Origin: Nitrosopumilaceae archaeon
GTDB lineage: Archaea > Thermoproteota > Nitrososphaeria > Nitrososphaerales > Nitrosopumilaceae
DNA length: 64,000 nucleotides
Direction: 5' to 3'
NCBI GenBank assembly: GCA_965200155.1
Contig: CBDATR010000010.1
Coordinates: 1 to 64,000, forward strand
The translations under genes were made by a program, and so were the position numbers. Within the stretch, counting starts at the first letter, position 1; each line of letters opens with the position of its first letter. The notes beneath the pieces were generated by a model. That model saw only the letters and a program-made list of their open reading frames with translations. It was not told the origin of the DNA and ran no database searches. Positions 3,107-41,110 of this stretch are shown one piece after another.

Positions 3107-3287
3107 AGAACCCGGATCCATTATATTTATATAAATCACGCCGACTAGGAGGTTAAAATGAAAGCTAAATTGATTCCTGCACTTTTACTATCTTTTGTAA
3201 TGGTGTCAGGAGCTGTAACGATAAATGACGCATATGCACAGACAAACACAGAACGGTTGGCAACCGTGGATGAAACAACCATGGATA
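3107..3287 (+). repeat. 181-bp repeat (promoter, RBS, signal peptide), inverted copy at 9947-10127
   Basis: Appears identical base by base to the reverse complement of 9947-10127. Confidence 0.95.
3121..3152 (+). promoter_or_regulatory. TATA box and AGGAGG ribosome-binding site
   Basis: TTTATATA at 3126-3133 and AGGAGG at 3147-3152 ahead of ATG 3158. Confidence 0.65.
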
Positions 3288-4978
3288 CCAACAACATGAT
3301 AGCAGCACTAAATACCGCCATTACCAATATGACCACTAGCATTATGGATATGCTGTCAGAAATGATGTCTTCCATGGATGCCTTGAGTGCCAGCGTGGCT
3401 GGTGTATCTACTACTGTAGATGATGTATCTACTACTGTGGAATCAATAGATTCCAAAGTGGATGGTCTTGCAAATAATATGGCATCTAGTAGCGGTGCAG
3501 TAACTGATGTTGCAAATGCCGTATCTGCACTGTCTAGCGATGTGGCTGACATAAACGAGCATGTACATGAGTACGCAGAGAACTCTGCTGATATTACAAA
3601 CGCTGTAAACGATATAAACACAGAAGTGGGCAACATTGCGGCATCACTGGCTGCAAGCACTAGCGGCTTGTCCGGTCTGCCAGCTTCAGTAGCCAGCATA
3701 CAAGACACTGTAAGCGATATTGCAAGCAGTAACCAGGACGCAGAGATTACACTCCGTCTGAACGCCCTTGAGGAGAGCCTTAACACTCGCTTGGGTAGTT
3801 TGGAGAGTAACATGGCACAAATATCTGATGCACTGAATATAGTGCAAGATGCAGTACAGCCAGTAGTGGCCCCGTTGCCAGAAGTAGAGGAGACGAAGAT
3901 TAGCGGCTTTATATACACCGCAGATTATGCGGGTGCAGTAGCTGCGAAACCCGATGACAACATATACAATTATGACTTTACACTAGAGTGTCTATCTGGA
4001 GCATTTGTCACTGGCATAGAAGTTAAAACCACAAATGCACGTGAAGAAATGAGAGACAACCGTAAGGACTTGAATGACGTTATTAATGACGATGATGCTG
4101 ACCAGGTCTTGCAACAAACTGCCAATAGGCTGTATTATAATCACATGACTATGTGGGATGATGGACCTCTTACAGTCACTAATCCATTCGATACCGATAG
4201 CCATCATTCAAAAATATATGCCGATGGTCGCGTTCTGATTGATACACGATTTTTGATAGGTGATGATAAACCTGTAATATACAATCAACCTATTAAGTTT
4301 AACTTCCAGGAGTTAAGTGCTGGTGATGCTTTGAATATACGTACTGAACTTGACGCAAGTCCATTGCAGTCTGACATTAAGGTTAATGCACCACCGCCTG
4401 ATAATGAAAATAAGATTGATCAAGGAGATGTGTACATATTTGACTTTGAAAAGCTAACCGATGACAATCCTGACGTGGTGAATTTCTGGAGTATTCCACT
4501 CTTTAAAGTCACGGTAACACTACTTAGCGCTGGCGATCCTAGCTGCAGCTTGAGTCTGCCCGAGGTCGTTGGTGATAGATTTACGGATAGGGATAATACT
4601 ATTCTGCTAAATGCACCTACTGAAGGTCCAGAGGAAGCTCTCTTGAAGGACTTTAGCGTTATGGTTGATTGTAACGATATGCCTACTCGTATCCAACAAA
4701 ATAGTGATATCACTTTCGACTTTATAGGAACTGTTGGAGATGTATTTGATAGCGTTAATACCCTTAACCTGATGGCTGGTGGTAAGAACGTGGAATACAA
4801 TATAAACTCTGAAAAAACCCTGACCCCGACGACTAACTCCGATACGTTGCCCATTAAGTGGGATAGTGGTATGCTAGTCGTGTCTGGTTCTATACCAACT
4901 GACGGTGCACTAATAGAAATCACCTATGACACTGTTGCAGGCAATTCATGTACTCAAGTAACTGAGGAAGACCAGTAG
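3158..4978 (+). CDS. secreted acidic surface protein with coiled-coil stalk
   Basis: Signal peptide ending AYA/Q, heptad repeats, acidic beta-rich C-terminal half ending GNSC; paralog of 8250-10076. Confidence 0.8.
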   Translation: MKAKLIPALLLSFVMVSGAVTINDAYAQTNTERLATVDETTMDTNNMIAALNTAITNMTTSIMDMLSEMMSSMDALSASVAGVSTTVDDVSTTVESIDSKVDGLANNMASSSGAVTDVANAVSALSSDVADINEHVHEYAENSADITNAVNDINTEVGNIAASLAASTSGLSGLPASVASIQDTVSDIASSNQDAEITLRLNALEESLNTRLGSLESNMAQISDALNIVQDAVQPVVAPLPEVEETKISGFIYTADYAGAVAAKPDDNIYNYDFTLECLSGAFVTGIEVKTTNAREEMRDNRKDLNDVINDDDADQVLQQTANRLYYNHMTMWDDGPLTVTNPFDTDSHHSKIYADGRVLIDTRFLIGDDKPVIYNQPIKFNFQELSAGDALNIRTELDASPLQSDIKVNAPPPDNENKIDQGDVYIFDFEKLTDDNPDVVNFWSIPLFKVTVTLLSAGDPSCSLSLPEVVGDRFTDRDNTILLNAPTEGPEEALLKDFSVMVDCNDMPTRIQQNSDITFDFIGTVGDVFDSVNTLNLMAGGKNVEYNINSEKTLTPTTNSDTLPIKWDSGMLVVSGSIPTDGALIEITYDTVAGNSCTQVTEEDQ

Positions 4979-5247: not shown

Positions 5248-6175
5248 TGTAATGTATGAAAAGTCGGTCCGCTAGTCATTGGCATCTCGCTCCATCCATT
5301 TTGCATCATTTACCCTAATTGTCTGGGTCGCCTTTTTATTCCTGAAGCGGCGTTTCGCCGTTATCTATATCCAGTTAGAAGTGCAATCTTCTCTGATTGT
5401 AGTAGTCCACATAATCCCGGAGACTGTCATAATGCCATATCTCGTCCTCAATCGTTCTATGGAAGCGCTCCAGTTTGCCATTTGTCTGCGGGTGGTATGG
5501 CCTGGAATTGATTAGTATGATTTCTTGATCCAGCAGTTCTTCCTAGAATAGTGGGTTTCCAGTTCTTTTTGCCCTTTTATTGTCCTACGAAACACGCGCC
5601 GTTATCCGAGATGCAGGGGCGCCGAATCTCTTTATCGCAAGTCTCAGTAATAGAACGGCGTTCTCTGAGGTTGCAAGCTCAAATAGTGCCGCTCCGACGA
5701 TGCACCTAGATGCATCATCTATGAGATTCAGTCCCCTGAAGCGCTCATCTTTCATGACATGCCAGTGCCACATTGCATTGGAATATTTACGCTCATAGCG
5801 TACCCACTCTGCAGGTGGTGAGACTGTCGTGCCGTTCTTTTTCATTATGTGATATACTGCGCGATATGTATCATGTCTAAGCCTCTTTGCAATACGTACT
5901 ACTCCGGCGGGATCCTTGCTATATGCTTCAGTTACCATTCGTATCTGGGTGGCGGTGATTGGTATCATAGGCCTGCCCATCTTTACTCGAGTCGTTCCCG
6001 TTCTCTGGTTCACAATCTTCGTACGTGTCTTGTTTCAGGTCTTGAGCTATTTTGGTGGCGGCAACGCCTCTTTTTGTCTTGATTCCTCTGTTATTCTATT
6101 TACCATAGCCTTTCGTGGCTTGTGTAACTTGAACTACCCTACACCGGATCCTGATCGGACTTTTGACATCTTGAG
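5248..6175 (-). mobile_element. IS481-family defective element
   Basis: TGTAATGTATGAAAAGTCGG end; YERKYSNAMWH, DDASR and PQTNGK fragments with frameshifts; far end approximate. Confidence 0.8.
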
Positions 6176-6344
6176 CTGCTATGCGTCGTATTCCGAGGAC
6201 TTGATTGATCGTATGAGTTCACGTGTTTTGATCATTCACTAAGATGTATAGATTGGTACGACAATATTTTGCTTAAATACAAAATTTGTAATAAGAATCT
6301 AATGAGAAGGCGCAGGTCCTATAAGGAATTGGAACTGAAAAATA

Positions 6345-6436
6345 GTATGAGTTCACGTCTTCCGGAATCTTATGCACAAATCACATTAACTGTCGCGATC
6401 AGTTGTGCGTAAATTTAGACACAGGTGAACTCATAC
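6345..6436 (+). mobile_element. 92-bp IS66-type MITE (family 1)
   Basis: TIR GTATGAGTTCAC; TSD GAAAAATA; inside the IS66 transposase gene. Confidence 0.95.
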
Positions 6437-6461
6437 GAAAAATAAGCTTCTTCAGGATACC

Positions 6462-6636
6462 CTTGCGTCTACCAAGAAAGAACTTGCACATTACAAGGAG
6501 AATGAGCGAGAGATAAAACGTGGAGACATAATACTTGCGTCTACCGAGAAAGAACTTGCACATTACAAGGCAGGGGCCATGGGCCGCCTTGTCCTACGTC
6601 TTGCGGCTACCGAGAAAGATCTTGCACATTACAAGG
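6462..6636 (+). repeat. three 37-bp direct repeats with 35- and 29-bp unique spacers (CRISPR-like geometry)
   Basis: Repeats at 6462, 6534 and 6600; the sister IS66 copy has no spacers and no triplication. Confidence 0.9.
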
Positions 6637-7411
6637 AACGTGTGAGAGTATTGGAAGCATATATGTCACGCACCACAAAAGAAATACGAAATCTCACACA
6701 AGATTTCCAAATTATTAGGAATTATGTAAATGAATTGAATGAGAAATTAGAAGAAAAACAGGGGAAAATTGCGGTACTCATAACGTGACTTAAATATTAT
6801 GAGAATGCTCACTCGCCACCATCCCTTCAATCCCTCCAGTACAAGAAGCGGAAACAGGGAGAGATAATAAGAAACAGAAAGAAGCCAGTACTAAATCAGC
6901 CAAAAAGGCTGGCGCTCAAAAGGGACACAAGGGGGTTTCTCGTTCCCACAACCCCGACAGAGTAATGCGCCATACCTTTAAGCATACTCCACTATGTGAG
7001 TGCGGCAATATGATGACAAAAATTGGTTGGAAACAACGACACATAACGGAATTAATACCAGCCAAAATAGAGGAGGCCCACCATATGATAGAAATGGCTG
7101 CGTGTGGGTGCGGCAAAAAACAACTGGCCCCAGCAGCGGGCGTCCCAAAGAGTGGTGGTTTTGGAGTTCAATTATGCGGTGCCATCACTGCATTGCGTGC
7201 GGAAAAGATTCCAATAAAACGCATACCTGTAATTTCGAAGGATCTCTTCGGCCTAAATATATCGGTGGGTGCAGTAAACAACATAATTGCCAGGGCCGCC
7301 GATGCATGTGAATCATTTATGGAAACAATTCATGAGAATATAATAAAATCACCCAGCATTCATGTGGACGAAACTGGTATATCACTGGCGGGTAGGCGTG
7401 ACGGGATATGG

Positions 7412-7503
7412 GTATGAGTTCACCTGTGTCTAAATTTACGCATAACTGATCGCGACAGTTAATGTGATTTGTGCGTAAGATTCCGGAAGACGTGAACTCA
7501 TAC
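7412..7503 (-). mobile_element. 92-bp MITE family 1
   Basis: TIRs; TSD GGATATGG; inside the IS66 transposase gene. Confidence 0.95.
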
Positions 7504-8249
7504 GGATATGGGGGATGCGGGCCGAAGAGTGGATGATATACAAAAGTAGGAGTTCATATGTAGTGGACAAATACCTGAACGGTTACAATGGAGCGATAGT
7601 CACAGACAGGTACGCTGTGTATCGCCGGTTTGATGACGGTGGGAAGCACCAGTTGTGTTGGGCGCATTTATTGCGCGATACCAGTATATTACATGCGGGA
7701 TTCTATATTGATCCCGGTGATCAGGACGCCCGGATCAAACTTGACAACGATTTGAAAGAATTGTTCCGGAGCGCACGTGAATCGCTGTGGGCCGTCCGCG
7801 CAATTACGACACTCATTTGAGACGGGGGCAGATGCATCAGTATTGTGATGTTGATGATACTGAACTGCAAAAGAAGGTAAAAGGATTGAATAAGGTCATA
7901 CCAGGCATGTTCGTATTCTTAGAATATGACAGTGTGGCGCCGACCAACAATCCAGCGGAGCAGTGGAACCGGTTCTGATACGCAGTGGTATTCCGCAAGA
8001 TTAGTGGTCAGATAAAGGGTGGTGAAAGGGCCATGCGCCGCATGTCTACATTCGTATCATGTGTTCAGACATGGAGGGCTCAGGGCCTTTCTGTAATGAA
8101 CGAGGTTGCTGCCAGAATGCAATTATAATTAAAAAACTGGGATGCATTCTATCTTATTATGTGATCAAAACACGTGAACTCATACGATTGATCATCTAAT
8201 ATGTGATGAAACACATGCGTGTTCCTTCCGGTATTAAAAAATGAAAAAT

Positions 8250-10076
8250 CTAGTTACAAGAATTGCCTTCGATAGTTGTATAATCAATTACAACCAACAA
8301 GTTGGTCTTCTGCGCAAGTCCGGCGTTGATCTGAAGTGGTCCTTCGCCGCCAAACGTGAATGGCAACTCACCAATGTTTGGTGTCAATGTACCATTACTA
8401 GCGAAGCCGAATATAGCATATACCTTTTTATCATCACCATCTCCTGTGAATAATTCAAGTGTACTGTACTGTGGCAGTGTTACGCCGCCTGGTACTTCTG
8501 TCCTTATGTCATTGATAATGGTTGGTACATTATTACAGTTTAGTGTATCGGTGAACCTCTCGATCAACCCACCATCCCCATCGGTGTCTCTCATAGGGTT
8601 AAGTATTTTTGTGGCTGAGTTTGTCAAGTCTGCAAAGCTGCCTGCCTGCATAATCTCACAACTGGCTTCATTGGCCGATAGCCAACTAATGGTCATTGTA
8701 AATGATTCTATGTTACCTACGCCCGCCTTACTGACTGTGTAACTGGCATATGATGAAGCGGCAGGAGACACATATGGTAAATCATTAGGCCGCTCAGGCA
8801 GATCGCTATTCCTCATACCATATGATTTGAAATCAGGCAGCCTATGAGTGTGTATTTCCGTATCGCCTGGACCATCATTGTTGTTGTATCGGGGAGCTAT
8901 ATAGGTAAAGTCTTCTCCAAATGGTGTAGAAACGTACCCGTTAAGGGCAGTGACGAAATCGTGCTTGGCCGTGTGTGTTGTAGTGATATCCAGTGCATCA
9001 CCAGCTGCTAGAGCCATGCGACCCAAGGAATGGTCCTTACGATTAAGGGAAACTTGGTCCGCTTTTATCTCCGCAATATTGGATTTGTATATTGGTATGC
9101 CACCAACGTATAATGTCGCTTCTGTACCATCTACGCGATCAGGATCTCCTTCATCGTGGTATGGGAAAACGTGATCAATATTGTTCGACTCAATGTTTGT
9201 CGTTACAGTGTTCAGGAAGACATCCTCGTCACATACAAGCTCAAATGCAGCCTTATATGTGCTAAGTCCCTTGTCATCTTTTGGTGGAATTTTGCCTGAA
9301 GCCGCATCACCAAAGTTTCTCTGATATACGGTGTGCGTTATCTCGCCTGAGTATAGCATCGTTATTGGATCCGGTACAGCTGCCATTACAGCTTCTTCTG
9401 CCGCTTCCCTGTCCATGTCTGCATCCATTTGGATGTTATTCAGCATTGTTTCCAACTGGTTAAGCTTTGCAGCGTTATTGGTTATGCCTCTGACTATTCT
9501 ATCCAGTGTGGCAGCATTCTCGGCATTAGCATCGCTAACTGCGTCGCTAATGTCACTTGGACTAACTAGTGACTCACTAATGTCACTTAGAGTATCTGCC
9601 TGTCCTTCTATTTCTTCATGCAAATTCTCAATATCAGATGTGCTTACTACCTGACTACCAAAGGTGGCCAATGCGGTCATAAGTCCGTCTAGCTTGGAAT
9701 CCACTGCGCTCACGTCATTGGCTACGGCGCTAACATCAGCACCTAGTCCGTCAACACTGGCAGTAACATTGCTCACGTGGCCGGTCAGGTCATTAACATT
9801 ATCATTCACCGCTGATACATTATCATTCACCGCTGATACATTATCATCAACACCACTTATTGCATCGCTAATTGACATTAGCATTTCCATGACACTGTTG
9901 GTCATAGTGTCAATGGCACTACTTATTGCCATGAGCAAGTCGTTGTTATCCATGGTTGTTTCATCCACGGTTGCCAACCGTTCTGTGTTTGTCTGTGCAT
10001 ATGCGTCATTTATCGTTACAGCTCCTGACACCATTACAAAAGATAGTAAAAGTGCAGGAATCAATTTAGCTTTCAT
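8250..10076 (-). CDS. secreted acidic surface protein with coiled-coil stalk
   Basis: First 43 aa identical to 3158-4978, divergent afterwards, same Cys pattern and GNSC end. Confidence 0.8.
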   Translation of the reverse strand: MKAKLIPALLLSFVMVSGAVTINDAYAQTNTERLATVDETTMDNNDLLMAISSAIDTMTNSVMEMLMSISDAISGVDDNVSAVNDNVSAVNDNVNDLTGHVSNVTASVDGLGADVSAVANDVSAVDSKLDGLMTALATFGSQVVSTSDIENLHEEIEGQADTLSDISESLVSPSDISDAVSDANAENAATLDRIVRGITNNAAKLNQLETMLNNIQMDADMDREAAEEAVMAAVPDPITMLYSGEITHTVYQRNFGDAASGKIPPKDDKGLSTYKAAFELVCDEDVFLNTVTTNIESNNIDHVFPYHDEGDPDRVDGTEATLYVGGIPIYKSNIAEIKADQVSLNRKDHSLGRMALAAGDALDITTTHTAKHDFVTALNGYVSTPFGEDFTYIAPRYNNNDGPGDTEIHTHRLPDFKSYGMRNSDLPERPNDLPYVSPAASSYASYTVSKAGVGNIESFTMTISWLSANEASCEIMQAGSFADLTNSATKILNPMRDTDGDGGLIERFTDTLNCNNVPTIINDIRTEVPGGVTLPQYSTLELFTGDGDDKKVYAIFGFASNGTLTPNIGELPFTFGGEGPLQINAGLAQKTNLLVVIDYTTIEGNSCN

Positions 10077-14881: not shown

Positions 14882-16568
14882 GTATGAGTTCACGTGTTTT
14901 GATCACATAATAAGATAGAATGCATCCCAGTTTTTTTAATTATAACTGCATTCTGACAGCAACCTCGTTCATAACAGAAAGGCCCTGAGCCCTCCATGTC
15001 TGAACACATGATACGAATGTGGACATGCGGCGCATTGCCCTTTCGCCACCCTTTATCTGGCCACTAATCTTGCGGAATACCACTGCGTATCGCAAAGCCT
15101 GCTCCGCTGGATTGTTGGTGGGCTCTACACTGTCATATTCTAAGAATACGAACATGCCTGGTATGGCCTTATTCAATCCTTTTACCTTCTTTTGTAGTTC
15201 AGTATCATCAACATCACAGTACTGATGCATCTGCTCCTGTCTCAAATGAGTGTCGTAATTGCGCGGACGGCCCGCAGTGATTCAGGGATTCCCGTGCGCT
15301 CCGGAACAATCCTTTCAGGTCGTTGTCAAGTTTGATCCGGGCGTCCTGAGCACCGGGATCAATATAGAATCCTGCATGTAATGCCTGGGTATCGCGCAAT
15401 AAATGCGCCCAACACAACTGGTGCTTCCCACCGTCATCAAACCGGCGGTACACAACGTACCTGTCCGTTACTATCGCTCCCTGGTAACCGTTCAGGTATT
15501 TGTTCACTACATTTGAACTCCTACTTTTGTCATATATGGACATCATCCACTCTTCGGCTCGCATCCCCCATACCCAGCCACGCCTACCCGCCAGTGATAT
15601 ACCAGTTTCGTCCACATGAATGCTGGGTGATTTTATTATATTCTCATGAATTGTTTCCATAAATGATTCACATGCATCGGCGGCCCTGGCAATTATGTTG
15701 TTTACTGCACCCACCGATATATTTAGGCCGAAGAGATCCCTCGAAATTACAGGTATGCGTTTTATTGGAATCTTTTCTGCGCGTAATGCGGTGATGGCAC
15801 CACATAATTGAACCCCAAAACTACCACTCTTTGGGACGCCCGCTGCTGGGGCCAGTTGTTTTTTGCCGCACCCACACGCAGCCATTTCTATCACATGAAG
15901 GGTCTCCTCTATTTTGGCTGGTATTAATTCCGTTATGTGTCGTTGTTTCCAACCAATTTTTGTCATCATATTGCCGCACTCACATATTGGTGTGTACTCA
16001 AAGGTGTGATGCACTACTCTGCCGGGGTTGTGGGAACGGGAAACCCCCTTGTGTCCCTTTTGCGCGCCAGCCTTTTTGGCTGATTTCGTACTGGCTTCTG
16101 TCTGTTGCTTATTATCTCCCTGTTTTCGCTTCTGTTCCTCCTGTTTTCGCTTCTTGTACTGGAGGGATTGAAGGGATGGTGGCGAGTGAGCATTCTCATA
16201 ATATTTAAGTCGCGTTGTGAGTACCGCAATTTTCCTGTCTTTTTCTACTAATTCCTCTTTTAATTCACTTACATAATTTCTAATAATTTGGAAATCTTGT
16301 ATATGATTTCGTATTTCTTTTATGGTGTGTGACATATATGCTTCCAATACTCTCACACGTTCCTTGTAATGTGCAAGATCTTTCTTGTAATCCTCAATAT
16401 CTTTCTTGATAGACGCAAGGGTATCCTGAAGAAGTTTATTTTCCAGTTCCAATTCCTTATAGGACCGGCGTCTTCTCATTAGATTCTTATTGCAAATTTG
16501 GTATTTAAGTAAAATATTGCCATACCAATCTATATCTTAGTGAATGATCAAAACACGTGAACTCATAC
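14882..16568 (-). mobile_element. IS66-family element, 1687 bp
   Basis: 24-bp TIRs, 8-bp TSD GGATCCTT. Confidence 0.97.
14940..16479 (-). pseudogene. tnpC: IS66 transposase TnpC split by one frameshift (ORFs 15214-16479 and 14940-15245)
   Basis: Coiled coil, GAQKGHKG, CxCG, DETG, QLCWAHLLR and PTNNPAEQALR motifs. Confidence 0.9.
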
Positions 16569-38823: not shown

Positions 38824-40256
38824 ATGATGGATGACATAATTCGGACCGTCGTTATACCGTTGAAAAATAATAGAGAGTTCTCCCGGCGCACCAAGATATT
38901 TGGTCACACGTCAGATTATGTCTATAATAGAGCGGTATCCGAGATCAGTCTTGGTGGCTACTACATACCCGGAACCACTCTTGAATTGAAGCATGATCCG
39001 GCCAAGGTCAAGAATAAGAACGAGTACGCCAAGTCACCATATGGCCTAAAGAAGGGCGCTTCATTATACGTGAATCAGATATCGCATTCTAGAACGGTCA
39101 TCAAGAGACGGTTTACCCGTCCAACAAGAATGGTTTGTTCCTGGAATTGACAAAGTGGCGCCCTGATCTGGAGTGGATGCGCGAGTTACCCTCTAACTAT
39201 GGTCGGGGTGCCATACTACAGGCGTCTGTCGCGTGCAGACGCGCGTACGAGGATCATTCTAATTACATGCCACACCGGCGTGACTGACAGAATCATACTA
39301 TCATGTGTAAGACCACCAATCCGTCGCGGTGAGTTCGAGTTGGACCTGTGCAGTTTTGGTGTGGGGAGAACAACCAAACCAATCGATCATTCCTTGGACA
39401 TGCGCTCATTCAGGATAGTGGAACGAGTAACCAAAGTAGGGGTGCATCTGGGATGGTATTGGGCAGTCCACTGACTCCATTCAGGATAGTGGAACGAGTA
39501 ACCAATAGTAGGGAGCATCAATTCGAGATTCACATCAATATACGGGAGAAACCATCGACCGGCGTTGTTCGCGGCGTGGATGTCGGCGGGAAACATCTAG
39601 CTGTAACAGCTGACACGAATGGCATAACGATGATTCCCAACATGAGACATCGTTCCATATTGCGGGAGATTAGCGCACTCCAGAGTATTAGAACGCGAAA
39701 GGGCAAGCGCAGGAAGCGAAAGATTGAGAAGAAAATCATTCAATTACGACAGAAAGCCAACAACATTGCGAACGACTCCATGAATAGAATGGTCCACACG
39801 GTCACCAAAGGTGTGGACAGGGTAGTACTAGAGGATTTATCACCTATATCAATGACCAGACATGGCGGGAACCACAAAATAACAATGAACCGTTCCATGC
39901 GCGAGAACCGGGTAGGCGAATTCCGCCGGAAAGTAGTACAAAAGTGCGAGGCACTGGGGATTGAATTGGTGGCTGTGCCAGCGAGATACACGAGGGGGCG
40001 GTTTACCCGCCCAACGAGCCAGACCTGTCACGTGTGTGGAAACGTTGAGATAAATCACGATCAACTAGGGACACTTTCAATATGTAACCAGGAATTTCAC
40101 GCCGATATCAACGCGGCGTTTAGTAACCGGTTTCTCTGTATGGGGCGGCAGAGCGTGTCGTCCGGGGGGCGGTTTACCCGCCCAACCGGAGGCGTCAGGG
40201 CAGGAATAATGGCGACAATCCAAAGCCATGTACTGCCTAGGAACGAGGTGCCATGA
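38824..40256 (+). pseudogene. tnpB: TnpB (IS200/IS605-type RNA-guided nuclease) pseudogene
   Basis: YVYNRA, GVDVG, VVLEDL, YT..SQTCHVCG and HADINAA motifs; several frameshifts and insertions. Confidence 0.9.
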
Positions 40257-40274
40257 AAATCATAGTCAAAGACT

Positions 40275-41110
40275 TATGGCGACCACCATATCTAAGACAG
40301 AATCTATAATGGCACTATCCACAAACATTCCAGCGACAGAACATGTAGCAGCGATACAAATCATCTACAAATGTATAATCCAAGATTTTGATGCATTATC
40401 TATAATACTGTTCGGCTCTATGGCTCGTAGCGACCATGGCAAGTACAGTGACATCGATATCATGGTTGTGATGCCAGAAGGCACCAATACAAGCGTGGTA
40501 CATTATAGTATAGCGAACACCATAATTCTTTGGCATGCAAGACAGAGGCGCATGGCCGCAACAACAGTTGTGGCAGCCAGTATAGCGAACACCATAATTC
40601 TTTGGCATGCAAGACAGGGATTGTATGTGACATGTAGATTTGTTACCCAAGGACTCATGGTGACCGCTATATTCCTGCTGCCCGATGGATTTGGACATAG
40701 GTGTGGATACAATAGTGACAACACCGTTAATACTGGAGACAAAATCACATCTGCGCGGTTCCGTACAAAGAATGGCATACTGGGAGGTATAGAATTATAC
40801 GGTAATCACAAACTAAAATACGCCTTTGGGCATACTGATGACGCGAAGTCAGGATCCATATTGCTCGAAATTGCCCTTGATGATATTCAGTCAGCCATTG
40901 AAAATGACTCCGGCAAGACACCATACAAGAGTACGTGCGTACAATCCCCCCCAACAGGCGATAGAAAAGGCGCTCAAGTCTGTAAGGTCTGGTCCGGAAT
41001 AGAACCGAAACACATCAATTGAAATATCTCTATGCCAAGGTTCCGTCCGATTAGGGGATAAGCGCATCAGTAACAGATTCGGATGACATACCTAAACAGA
41101 ACATAGCTTC
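40275..41110 (+). pseudogene. minimal nucleotidyltransferase-HEPN fusion pseudogene
   Basis: LFGSMAR...SDID motif; frameshifted HEPN-like QQAIEK..K; MITE insertion; ends approximate. Confidence 0.7.
40509..40671. mobile_element. MITE family 3 (91 bp, TA-flanked) with a duplicated left end
   Basis: TIR TATAGCGAACACCAT / ATGGTGACCGCTATA; homologous to 35893-35983. Confidence 0.75.

Follow-up and report, generated by a model that had tools for sequence, protein, structure and literature searches.

A repeat-spacer block inside an archaeal IS66 transposase gene as a highly probable product of natural off-target spacer integration by a type I-G CRISPR system

The IS66-family element and the block in its transposase gene

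The window, i.e., the whole stretch of DNA analysed (64,000 nt; G000:C10:1-64000), carries a degraded insertion sequence (IS) of the IS66 family, and a block of repeats and spacers sits inside its transposase gene (Table 1). The surrounding 2.38-Mb assembly, a draft of 51 contigs and 87.6% completeness, is that of an ammonia-oxidising archaeon, with archaeal AmoA and archaeal 16S rRNA present, and is full of this IS66-family IS (dozens of copies). Some of the public runs that contain window DNA carry the label sponge metagenome.

Table 1. Features of the window that bear on the repeat-spacer block (positions are those of the window)
Feature	Position	Strand	Remarks
Degraded IS66-family IS	6211..8185	+	Terminal inverted repeats GTATGAGTTCACGT / ACGTGAACTCATAC; 8-bp target duplication GATTGATC on both sides
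Transposase start codon and first codons, MRRRRSYKELELKN	6304..6344	+	Severed from the rest of the gene by a MITE
93-nt MITE with the IS's own terminal repeats, after transposase codon 14	6345..6437	+	Absent from the sister copy
Repeat 1, 36 nt	6462..6497	+	Upstream copy of the duplicated target; encodes LASTKKELAHYK
Spacer 1, 36 nt	6498..6533	+	Exact copy of G000:C24:21284-21319; read as ENEREIKRGDII in both
Repeat 2, 36 nt	6534..6569	+	From word search and comparison of genomic copies
Spacer 2, 30 nt	6570..6599	+	6-nt-deleted form of a 36-nt spacer found in four other IS copies
Repeat 3, 36 nt	6600..6635	+	Oldest, most diverged copy; runs on into the rest of the gene
Premature TGA stop	6786..6788	+	Intact paralogues continue through ...LTTRLKYYENAHSPPS
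Second MITE copy, same IS	7412..7503	+	Inside the element at 6211..8185
Sister IS66 copy (empty site)	14882..16568	-	8-bp target duplication GGATCCTT
Second ectopic repeat-spacer-repeat block, unit 72 nt	40507..40617	+	Independent of the IS block

An intact 508-aa transposase paralogue matches PF03050 (DDE_Tnp_IS66) with an E value of 7e-39; on the same protein, zf-IS66 scores 22.5 bits, under its cut-off of 27.3. The accessory tnpA and tnpB genes of classical IS66 are absent, the 1687-bp sister element in the window consisting of a single long ORF, a layout that we take to fit the single-ORF subgroup of the family. With two MITE insertions and a premature stop, the window copy is dead; the first MITE is flanked by its own 8-bp target duplication, GAAAAATA, at 6337-6344 and 6438-6445. 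The nearest external IS66 homologues are at most 42% identical. For the spacer peptides, intact IS66 homologues of related genomes were the place to look, and the six nearest external homologues (34-39% identity in the alignment) lack them. A DNA search of 30 related genomes, nine of them of the same genus, did not find the IS and returned one 48-nt match (E 1e-4).

Within the transposase gene, a 37-nt word recurs at 6462-6498, 6534-6570, and 6600-6636, with 1, 0, and 2 mismatches, respectively, and had 0 matches in 100 shuffles. A preliminary description of this DNA had claimed three repeats and two different spacers inside an IS66 transposase, and the word search confirms this arrangement at 6462-6635. 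It had put the spacers at 35 and 29 bp; two spacers there are, but when all copies in the genome are compared, the segment actually duplicated proves to be 36 nt long, with spacers of 36 and 30 nt, the difference arising because the G after the repeat had been counted as part of the repeat. Recounting under those earlier borders returns the same 20/29 G+C for the second spacer, which becomes 21/30 with the 36-nt unit. The window repeats differ at 0-3 of 36 positions, and the spacers show no likeness to each other or to the repeat.

The block lies in the N-terminal coiled coil of the transposase, where the repeat encodes LAST(K/E)K(E/D)LAHYK. Both insertions are in frame and free of stops, as had been said of them, with units of 72 and 66 nt and no stop codon between 6438 and the TGA at 6786-6788. 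The sister copy likewise bears out its earlier description, having the segment once (about 16362-16418), with the extra heptad KKDIEDY and no spacer. Repeat 1 is 149 nt from the left end of the IS, and the block is sense to the transposase transcript. Tandem Repeats Finder, run on 5500-7500, returned 0 rows, as expected for repeats split by unrelated spacers.

Independently assembled contigs from three public runs (X3, X4, and X7) bridge spacer 1, repeat 2, spacer 2, and repeat 3 with 0-1 differences from the window; the block is thus not an artefact of this assembly. Such runs consist of short contigs and report on the presence of junctions only, not on transcription, RNA ends, or insertion polymorphism; two of the bridging runs are RNA libraries, which is no proof of transcription, as DNA carry-over is possible. 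Pattern scans, which required exact matches and covered sets that may omit the window's own genome, found no exact match to a repeat-gap-repeat pattern or to a 24-nt junction in metagenome contigs, nor to the junction in genome contigs.

Spacer sources and the states of the site among IS copies

Spacer 1 is identical at 36/36 positions to a segment of a non-IS region on another contig, G000:C24:21284-21319. The source gene there is the host polB, whose 836-aa product is a family B DNA polymerase (PF00136, E 4e-52); polB and the IS use one and the same reading frame for the segment. The 36-nt form of spacer 2 agrees at 31/36 positions (identity counted by eye) with G000:C1:23455-23490, in a transketolase/ribulose-phosphate-epimerase gene and again in the same frame; this match could be a paralogue of the true source. 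To judge from these alignments, the window spacers are not foreign, spacer 1 being host-chromosomal and spacer 2 probably so. The search for spacer sources in host and viral contigs that had been proposed at the outset was productive on the host side; on the viral side, no exact match was found in viral contigs to the 22-25-nt cores of spacers 1-6. Spacers 3-6, which occur in other IS copies, have no source in the assembly (87.6% complete).

The IS site was counted in two ways, namely, between fixed anchors (52 readable copies) and by repeat sequence (66 loci). One repeat is present in 27 of the 52 anchored copies and the heptad variant, with one extra heptad, in 11; three have the form repeat-spacer 2-repeat, five have repeat-spacer 1-repeat-spacer 2-repeat as in the window or a close variant, and six are single copies with other content. 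The search by repeat sequence over the whole genome resolved its 66 loci into 51 with one repeat, eight with two, six with three, and one with four; 15 loci thus hold two to four repeats, and two of the 51 single-repeat loci retain a spacer that was severed by a later insertion.

Aligning the genomic IS66 copies, a check suggested in the preliminary description, brought out empty as well as filled sites and six spacers in one 36-nt register. The unfilled site exists in the 27 single-repeat and 11 heptad-variant copies, the sister copy of the window among them; the IS paralogues also include the intermediate state, repeat-spacer 2-repeat, and the same register filled with other spacers. The six distinct spacers measure 36, 36, 36, 37, 36, and 37 nt (spacer 2 in its full-length form), and every one of them directly follows the same 36-nt unit, CTTGCG...TACAAG. 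In IS copies of a different sublineage, spacer 3 and spacer 4 each occur as the only spacer between a pair of identical repeats; the register has therefore been filled independently in at least three IS lineages (spacers 2, 3, and 4). Random placement of 45 events would put 0.0012 primary hits into precisely this register across the 66 IS copies, compared to an observed minimum of three (P(>=3) = 3e-10), which marks the IS66 site as a hot spot. Relative to spacer 2, the additions of spacers 1, 5, and 6 are all upstream, a growth polarity of 3/3 that has a chance of about 1 in 6 and is not significant.

At most loci, the array-bearing IS copies have differing flanks, meaning that they transposed after spacer acquisition; this accounts for the spacer peptides in paralogues of the same genome. 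One copy with spacer 2 retains a full reading frame of 530 aa (508 aa + 22). The two 37-nt spacers are frame-breaking, and the IS copies that carry them are singletons. In one further copy (C31:2830), the whole repeat-spacer unit is duplicated in tandem.

The resident type I-G system and matching blocks across the genome

A search of the assembly for Cas1 homologues gave a single match, a 549-aa Cas4/Cas1 fusion assignable to Cas4g/Cas1g (NF049935, E 1e-213; PF01867, E 3e-91; PDB 7mi4, E 1e-147 over the full length). Cas2 (PF09827, E 1e-18) comes directly after Cas4/Cas1, followed by the leader and then the array; beyond the array, on its other side, are Cas3g, Csb2 (Cas5/6), and Csb1 (Cas7g), with matches to TIGR02621 (E 1e-212), TIGR02165 (E 2e-84), and TIGR02570 (E 3e-20), respectively. 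By these signature genes, the host CRISPR-Cas system is classed as type I-G. Cas8g/Csx17 (TIGR04113) had no match in the genome, the control genomes being silent too; no long ORF lies upstream of cas7g, where an IS5-family fragment is found.

The host array (C9:71011-92087) comprises 289 repeats, all of 36 nt and 287 of them identical. The canonical repeat starts ATTTCCGCAGCC, the bases adjoining it are not conserved, and the leader end, TTGTTAACCTGCGCRGT, is common to an orphan leader-repeat on another contig (C43). Units of 71, 72, 73, 74, and 75 nt number 16, 85, 101, 63, and 15, respectively (280 of 288), and spacers are mostly 35-39 nt. With a 36-nt duplication and 36-37-nt spacers, the IS blocks thus share the resident repeat and spacer lengths. 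None of the 288 canonical spacers has a match elsewhere in the genome.

All contigs, with the real array excluded, were scanned for direct repeats that are spaced 40-160 nt apart and whose intervening and flanking sequences are unrelated. The scan returned 332 direct-repeat pairs, 70 of which fall at spacings of 71-75 nt (6, 29, 20, 9, and 6), as against approximately 2.3 pairs at each of the other 116 spacings. Among the pairs spaced 71-75 nt apart, exact repeat lengths of 36 nt (17 pairs) and 37 nt (20 pairs) form a peak that takes in 37 of the 70; other spacings show no peak at repeat lengths of 36-37 nt. Clean blocks, with an exact run of 33-41 nt, number 49, each a 36-nt duplication with a 35-39-nt insert and a unit of 71-75 nt; four are at the IS66 site and 45 elsewhere. 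A near-full-length genomic copy (>=94% identity) exists for 23 of the 49 inserts, versus 0 of the 288 canonical spacers. Units divisible by 3 are found in 25/49 ectopic versus 102/288 canonical cases (Fisher p = 0.055), a marginal difference that we do not use as evidence.

Two of these blocks deserve separate description. The one at 40507-40617 in the window is in frame in a nucleotidyltransferase-domain gene (40228-41022), and its insert matches G000:C9:28695-28727. Another, with three repeats, is situated at the cas4/cas1 stop codon; over positions 17-23, its repeat reads GGTTGCG, as the canonical repeat does.

The 49 blocks reduce to 44 distinct target sequences, the best ungapped identity of which to the canonical repeat averages 13.0/36, compared to 11.39 (sd 0.30) for random genomic 36-mers handled in the same manner (reached in 0/2000 simulations). 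In an unbiased dinucleotide scan of the targets, positions 3-5 and 11-13 stand out. T3-G/T4-C5 (T3-K4-C5) is present in 25/44 targets (random, 5.5; sd 2.2), C11-C12 in 20/44 (random, 8.5; sd 2.6), and both together in 8/44 (random, 0.36); for each of these counts, 0/2000 simulations reach the value. The IS site, which starts CTTGCGTCTACC, has both motifs, as does the canonical repeat, and the two are identical at 15/36 positions overall. No leader-like flank accompanies the IS site except for a shared 9-mer at a different distance, and TTGTTAACCTGCGCRGT is absent upstream. With respect to a PAM, TTN lies beside 5/24 self protospacers against a background of 0.128 (p = 0.19), or beside up to 9/24 when counted by eye with ambiguous borders, and sites oriented by T3-K4-C5 display no consistent PAM side. 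In the Geobacter I-U/I-G system, Cas4/1 is reported to have selected TTN in 50% of unique spacers (PMC6547450).

Origin of the block and comparison with known systems

We consider it highly probable that the block arose through off-target (ectopic) spacer integration by the host type I-G Cas4/Cas1 and Cas2, i.e., that it is a natural neo-CRISPR. We count the geometry, the empty and filled sites, the self source of spacer 1, the genome-wide signature, the target motif, and the cas genes as observations on which the following scheme can build. The 5' features T3, G/T4, C5, C11, and C12 of the canonical repeat recur in the IS66 transposase gene over a stretch of 36 nt (CTTGCGTCTACC...TACAAG); the integrase, charged with a 36-37-nt prespacer, would attack both ends of this stretch, 36 nt apart and on opposite strands, and gap repair would leave the stretch duplicated on either side of the insert. 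In the window lineage, spacer 2 would have been integrated first and spacer 1 later, at the upstream repeat. As 36 + 36 nt amount to 72 nt, or 24 codons, the reading frame would be kept in a tolerant coiled coil, and with the frame kept, the array-bearing IS copies would have stayed mobile. They would then have been copied to further sites, with the window copy dying later through two MITEs and a stop. We infer the order of the strand attacks, and geometry, motif, and co-occurrence point circumstantially to Cas4/Cas1-Cas2 as the responsible enzyme. From the window alone, it had been suggested that spacers were integrated at one site twice in succession, in the manner of a growing array; the empty, intermediate, and independently filled paralogues, the lengths equal to those of the host type I-G array, and the exact host-gene copy in spacer 1 now uphold that suggestion.

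Several other origins were weighed. The alternative raised from the beginning was ordinary coiled-coil expansion, in which slippage or unequal recombination of a heptad-rich segment would have left the spacers as diverged units; the heptad coiled-coil region, the IS subfamily with an extra heptad (11 copies), the tandem duplication of an entire repeat-spacer unit at C31:2830, and the in-frame inserts are all in keeping with it. Yet near-identical repeats alternate with spacers that resemble neither one another nor the repeat, spacer 1 reproduces a polB segment exactly, four further unrelated spacers (two of them 37-nt and frame-breaking) occupy the same register, and the unit size is that of the host CRISPR array. 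With homology confined to the 36-nt parts and no tandem array found by Tandem Repeats Finder, expansion was rejected, and we assign it next to no probability. A functional mini-CRISPR array borne by the IS, transcribed and processed by the type I-G machinery into guides (e.g., against competitors), would fit the array-like architecture with its unique spacers of host-like length, the position and sense orientation of the block in the IS, its coverage by RNA-library contigs (subject to possible DNA carry-over), and the reported mini-arrays on mobile elements (PMC6858448 and PMC11656645). Against such a function stand an IS repeat with only 15/36 identity to the host repeat and a folding energy of -3.0 kcal/mol (z -0.25), versus -14.3 kcal/mol (z -2.85) for the canonical 8-bp hairpin; the lack of a canonical leader beside the first IS repeat; and the same type of block at approximately 45 unrelated, non-mobile sites. 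Moreover, spacer 1, present in at least seven IS loci, matches the host polB perfectly, and a working spacer 1 guide would thus be autoimmune. This possibility was also considered and rejected, and we hold it to be very unlikely.

Integration by other machinery, whether an integrase (casposase-like or of another type) or a second CRISPR system, since lost, that used a 36-nt ruler, would accommodate the lack of the PAM signature that is typical of Cas4-assisted selection, and in a genome that is 87.6% complete, genes may be missing. The sole Cas1 homologue in the assembly is nonetheless the resident fusion, the 36-nt duplication and 35-39-nt inserts equal those of the resident array, the ectopic targets carry the 5' motif of the resident repeat, and the three-repeat block at the cas4/cas1 stop codon has GGTTGCG in common with the canonical repeat; we judge such other machinery to be very unlikely, on a par with a functional array. 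An assembly artefact, whereby the assembler would have stitched variant IS copies in series, might be suspected in a 51-contig draft with dozens of IS copies. It is contradicted by the junctions bridged in independent contigs of other public runs with 0-1 differences, by the same array in several contigs with different flanks, and by perfect 36-nt duplications round self-derived 36-nt inserts at 45 unique sites, which is not an assembler signature. This explanation was rejected as well, and its likelihood is, in our estimation, vanishingly small.

Under off-target integration by the resident system, the IS block and the other ectopic blocks would be by-products rather than working arrays, yielding no functional crRNA. 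The ectopic arrays would survive because they are invisible to interference, and this invisibility would explain why self-derived spacers are common in ectopic blocks and absent from the real array. On the same reading, the ectopic spacers, not being used for interference, would preserve an unselected adaptation input. We incline, with some reserve, to a broader proposal, namely, that this genome holds a natural, large-scale record of array birth: a promiscuous type I-G integrase would have seeded more than 50 proto-arrays at mimics of the first dozen bases of its repeat, some of which would have grown to three or four repeats, while the IS66 hot spot would add in-frame 24-residue segments to a still-intact protein and be multiplied by transposition, with an unselected, largely self-derived adaptation input being preserved.

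If this is true, the rules by which the type I-G integrase chooses its targets (5' repeat motif and 36-nt ruler) could be read from a natural data set, and there would be direct evidence of the de novo birth and growth of arrays in nature, with consequences for views on how CRISPR repeats originate and turn over. Side by side, the unselected and the selected repertoire of spacers would allow the strength of the autoimmunity filter on the real array to be gauged. A new source of genome change in a mobile-element-rich symbiont would also be implied, through in-frame 24-codon insertions, gene disruption, and arrays hitch-hiking on IS; nascent arrays could thus be spread by the IS as a vehicle, and proteins could gain in-frame insertions through CRISPR adaptation. 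A full-text literature search brought up no wild genome for which ectopic integrations by the dozen are described, and no description of ectopic integration in archaea, in type I-G systems, or within the reading frame of a transposase.

With the known IS66 family, the element shares a DDE_Tnp_IS66 transposase, 8-bp target duplications, and terminal inverted repeats; it differs in being single-ORF, and the nearest external homologues show no such insert. Mini-arrays of mobile elements have repeats that match the host CRISPR repeat and spacers that target competing elements. In contrast, the repeat here is a piece of a transposase gene with 15/36 identity to the host repeat, and the traceable spacers come from host genes. 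Common to both is the presence of one to three spacers on a mobile genetic element, with mini-CRISPR arrays and solitary repeat units having been described on viruses and other mobile elements (PMC6858448, PMC11656645, PMC10651486).

Ectopic spacer acquisition inside canonical arrays has been described in Streptococcus thermophilus (PMC7999890 and PMC5338259), where integration likewise takes place away from the leader-proximal repeat; those events reportedly use genuine CRISPR repeats in an array, whereas the targets here are non-CRISPR sequences. The likeness to canonical adaptation in type I-G (formerly I-U) extends to the protein family (E 1e-147 to PDB 7mi4), to the gene order cas4/1-cas2-leader-array, and to a repeat-length duplication per acquisition; canonical integration is reported to be leader-directed and TTN-selective (PMC6547450; PDB 7mi4), whereas the ectopic events occurred without a leader and without a significant PAM.

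The closest precedent is the neo-CRISPR, defined as off-target Cas1-Cas2 spacer integration (Nivala, Shipman and Church 2018, Nat Microbiol 3:310), which, as citing texts relate, was observed in Escherichia coli type I-E with over-produced Cas1-Cas2 and oligonucleotide prespacers. Citing texts describe off-target events as rare and mention "circumstantial evidence" in two other species; others discuss how cells avoid off-target integration and how repeat motifs and their spacing guide integration in vitro. Natural cases are only "circumstantial" in the surveyed literature, the E. coli evidence having been obtained with over-produced Cas1-Cas2. As in that work, a repeat-length, non-CRISPR stretch would here be duplicated round a spacer-length insert by an adaptation integrase, and repeated hits can build an array de novo. 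Compared to the E. coli work, the present case differs in being natural and in an archaeal type I-G system, with at least 51 distinct inserts in one genome, a defined target motif, hot spots, and arrays that lie inside an ORF and have been multiplied by transposition.

Ectopic blocks in the window and across the host genome

A genome-wide scan of the host assembly revealed, beyond the IS66 transposase site, ~45 more blocks in which a 36-nt duplication accompanies an insert of 35–39 nt (examples in the table). Repeated insertion in the same register also occurs in several multi-copy sequences other than IS66, e.g., a family at C13:35858 and C34:161231. In the second block of the window, SIANTIILWHARQ is duplicated on either side of an 11-residue insert with the reading frame kept, and this insert has a match at C9:28695-28727. 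One ectopic spacer (C25:4760) and one canonical-array spacer (C9:75221-75246) have 26 nt in common, which suggests that they derive from overlapping parts of one source.

Coordinates of ectopic blocks and associated features (C, host contig)
Feature	Location	Description
Second ectopic repeat-spacer-repeat block	window 40507-40617	unit 72 nt; inside nucleotidyltransferase-domain gene 40228-41022
Ectopic block examples	C1:11039, C10:141058, C22:16729, C24:237593, C43:106025	
Ectopic block, three repeats and two spacers	C9:70400-70587 (L001/L002, stretches around the cas genes)	between cas4/cas1 and cas2
MITE copies	window 6345-6437, 7412-7503	12 further places in window
Paralogous secreted-protein genes	window 3158-4978 (+), 8250-10076 (-)	flank IS, facing each other
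Orphan leader-like sequence and repeat	C43 ~128228-128263 (plus strand)	one canonical-type repeat (33/36), without spacers

Spacer frame and surroundings of the IS66 site

For both spacers of the IS66 site (spacer 1, 6498-6533; spacer 2, 6570-6599), frame and sense within the IS are those of the source genes: spacer 1 encodes ENEREIKRGDII, as in polB, and spacer 2 encodes AGAMG(NM)RLVLR, versus AEAMGDMRLALR in its probable source. This agreement could reflect chance, or alternatively a filter for stop-free inserts.

The canonical leader (C9:70970-70978) and the sequence upstream of the IS site (window ~6327-6335) share the 9-mer GAATTGGAA. As it lies 41 nt before the first canonical repeat versus 36 nt before IS repeat 1 (in MITE-free copies), the sharing may be due to chance (estimated probability roughly 0.03). 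The MITE itself (~92 nt) has the terminal inverted repeats of the IS66 element, generates 8-bp target duplications, and is extremely abundant (~2% of the genome), with ~575 genomic BLAST hits of at least 85 nt. The secreted proteins encoded on either side of the IS (606 and 608 aa) are identical over their first 43 residues.

The canonical system and the block at cas4/cas1

No Cas8g/Csx17 large-subunit gene was found upstream of cas7g (L003:6717-8750, a stretch around the type I-G cas genes; C9 ~98700-100750), in a search for which the control was uninformative; this place is occupied by an IS5-family transposase fragment, and the interference module may be incomplete. Over its last 17 bases, the orphan leader-like sequence on C43 hardly differs from the leader of the main array.

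The block between cas4/cas1 and cas2 begins within the final codons and stop codon of cas4/cas1, with host protospacers existing for both of its spacers. Compared to the canonical repeat, its repeat has positions 17–23 (GGTTGCG) and the 5′ TTTC in common.
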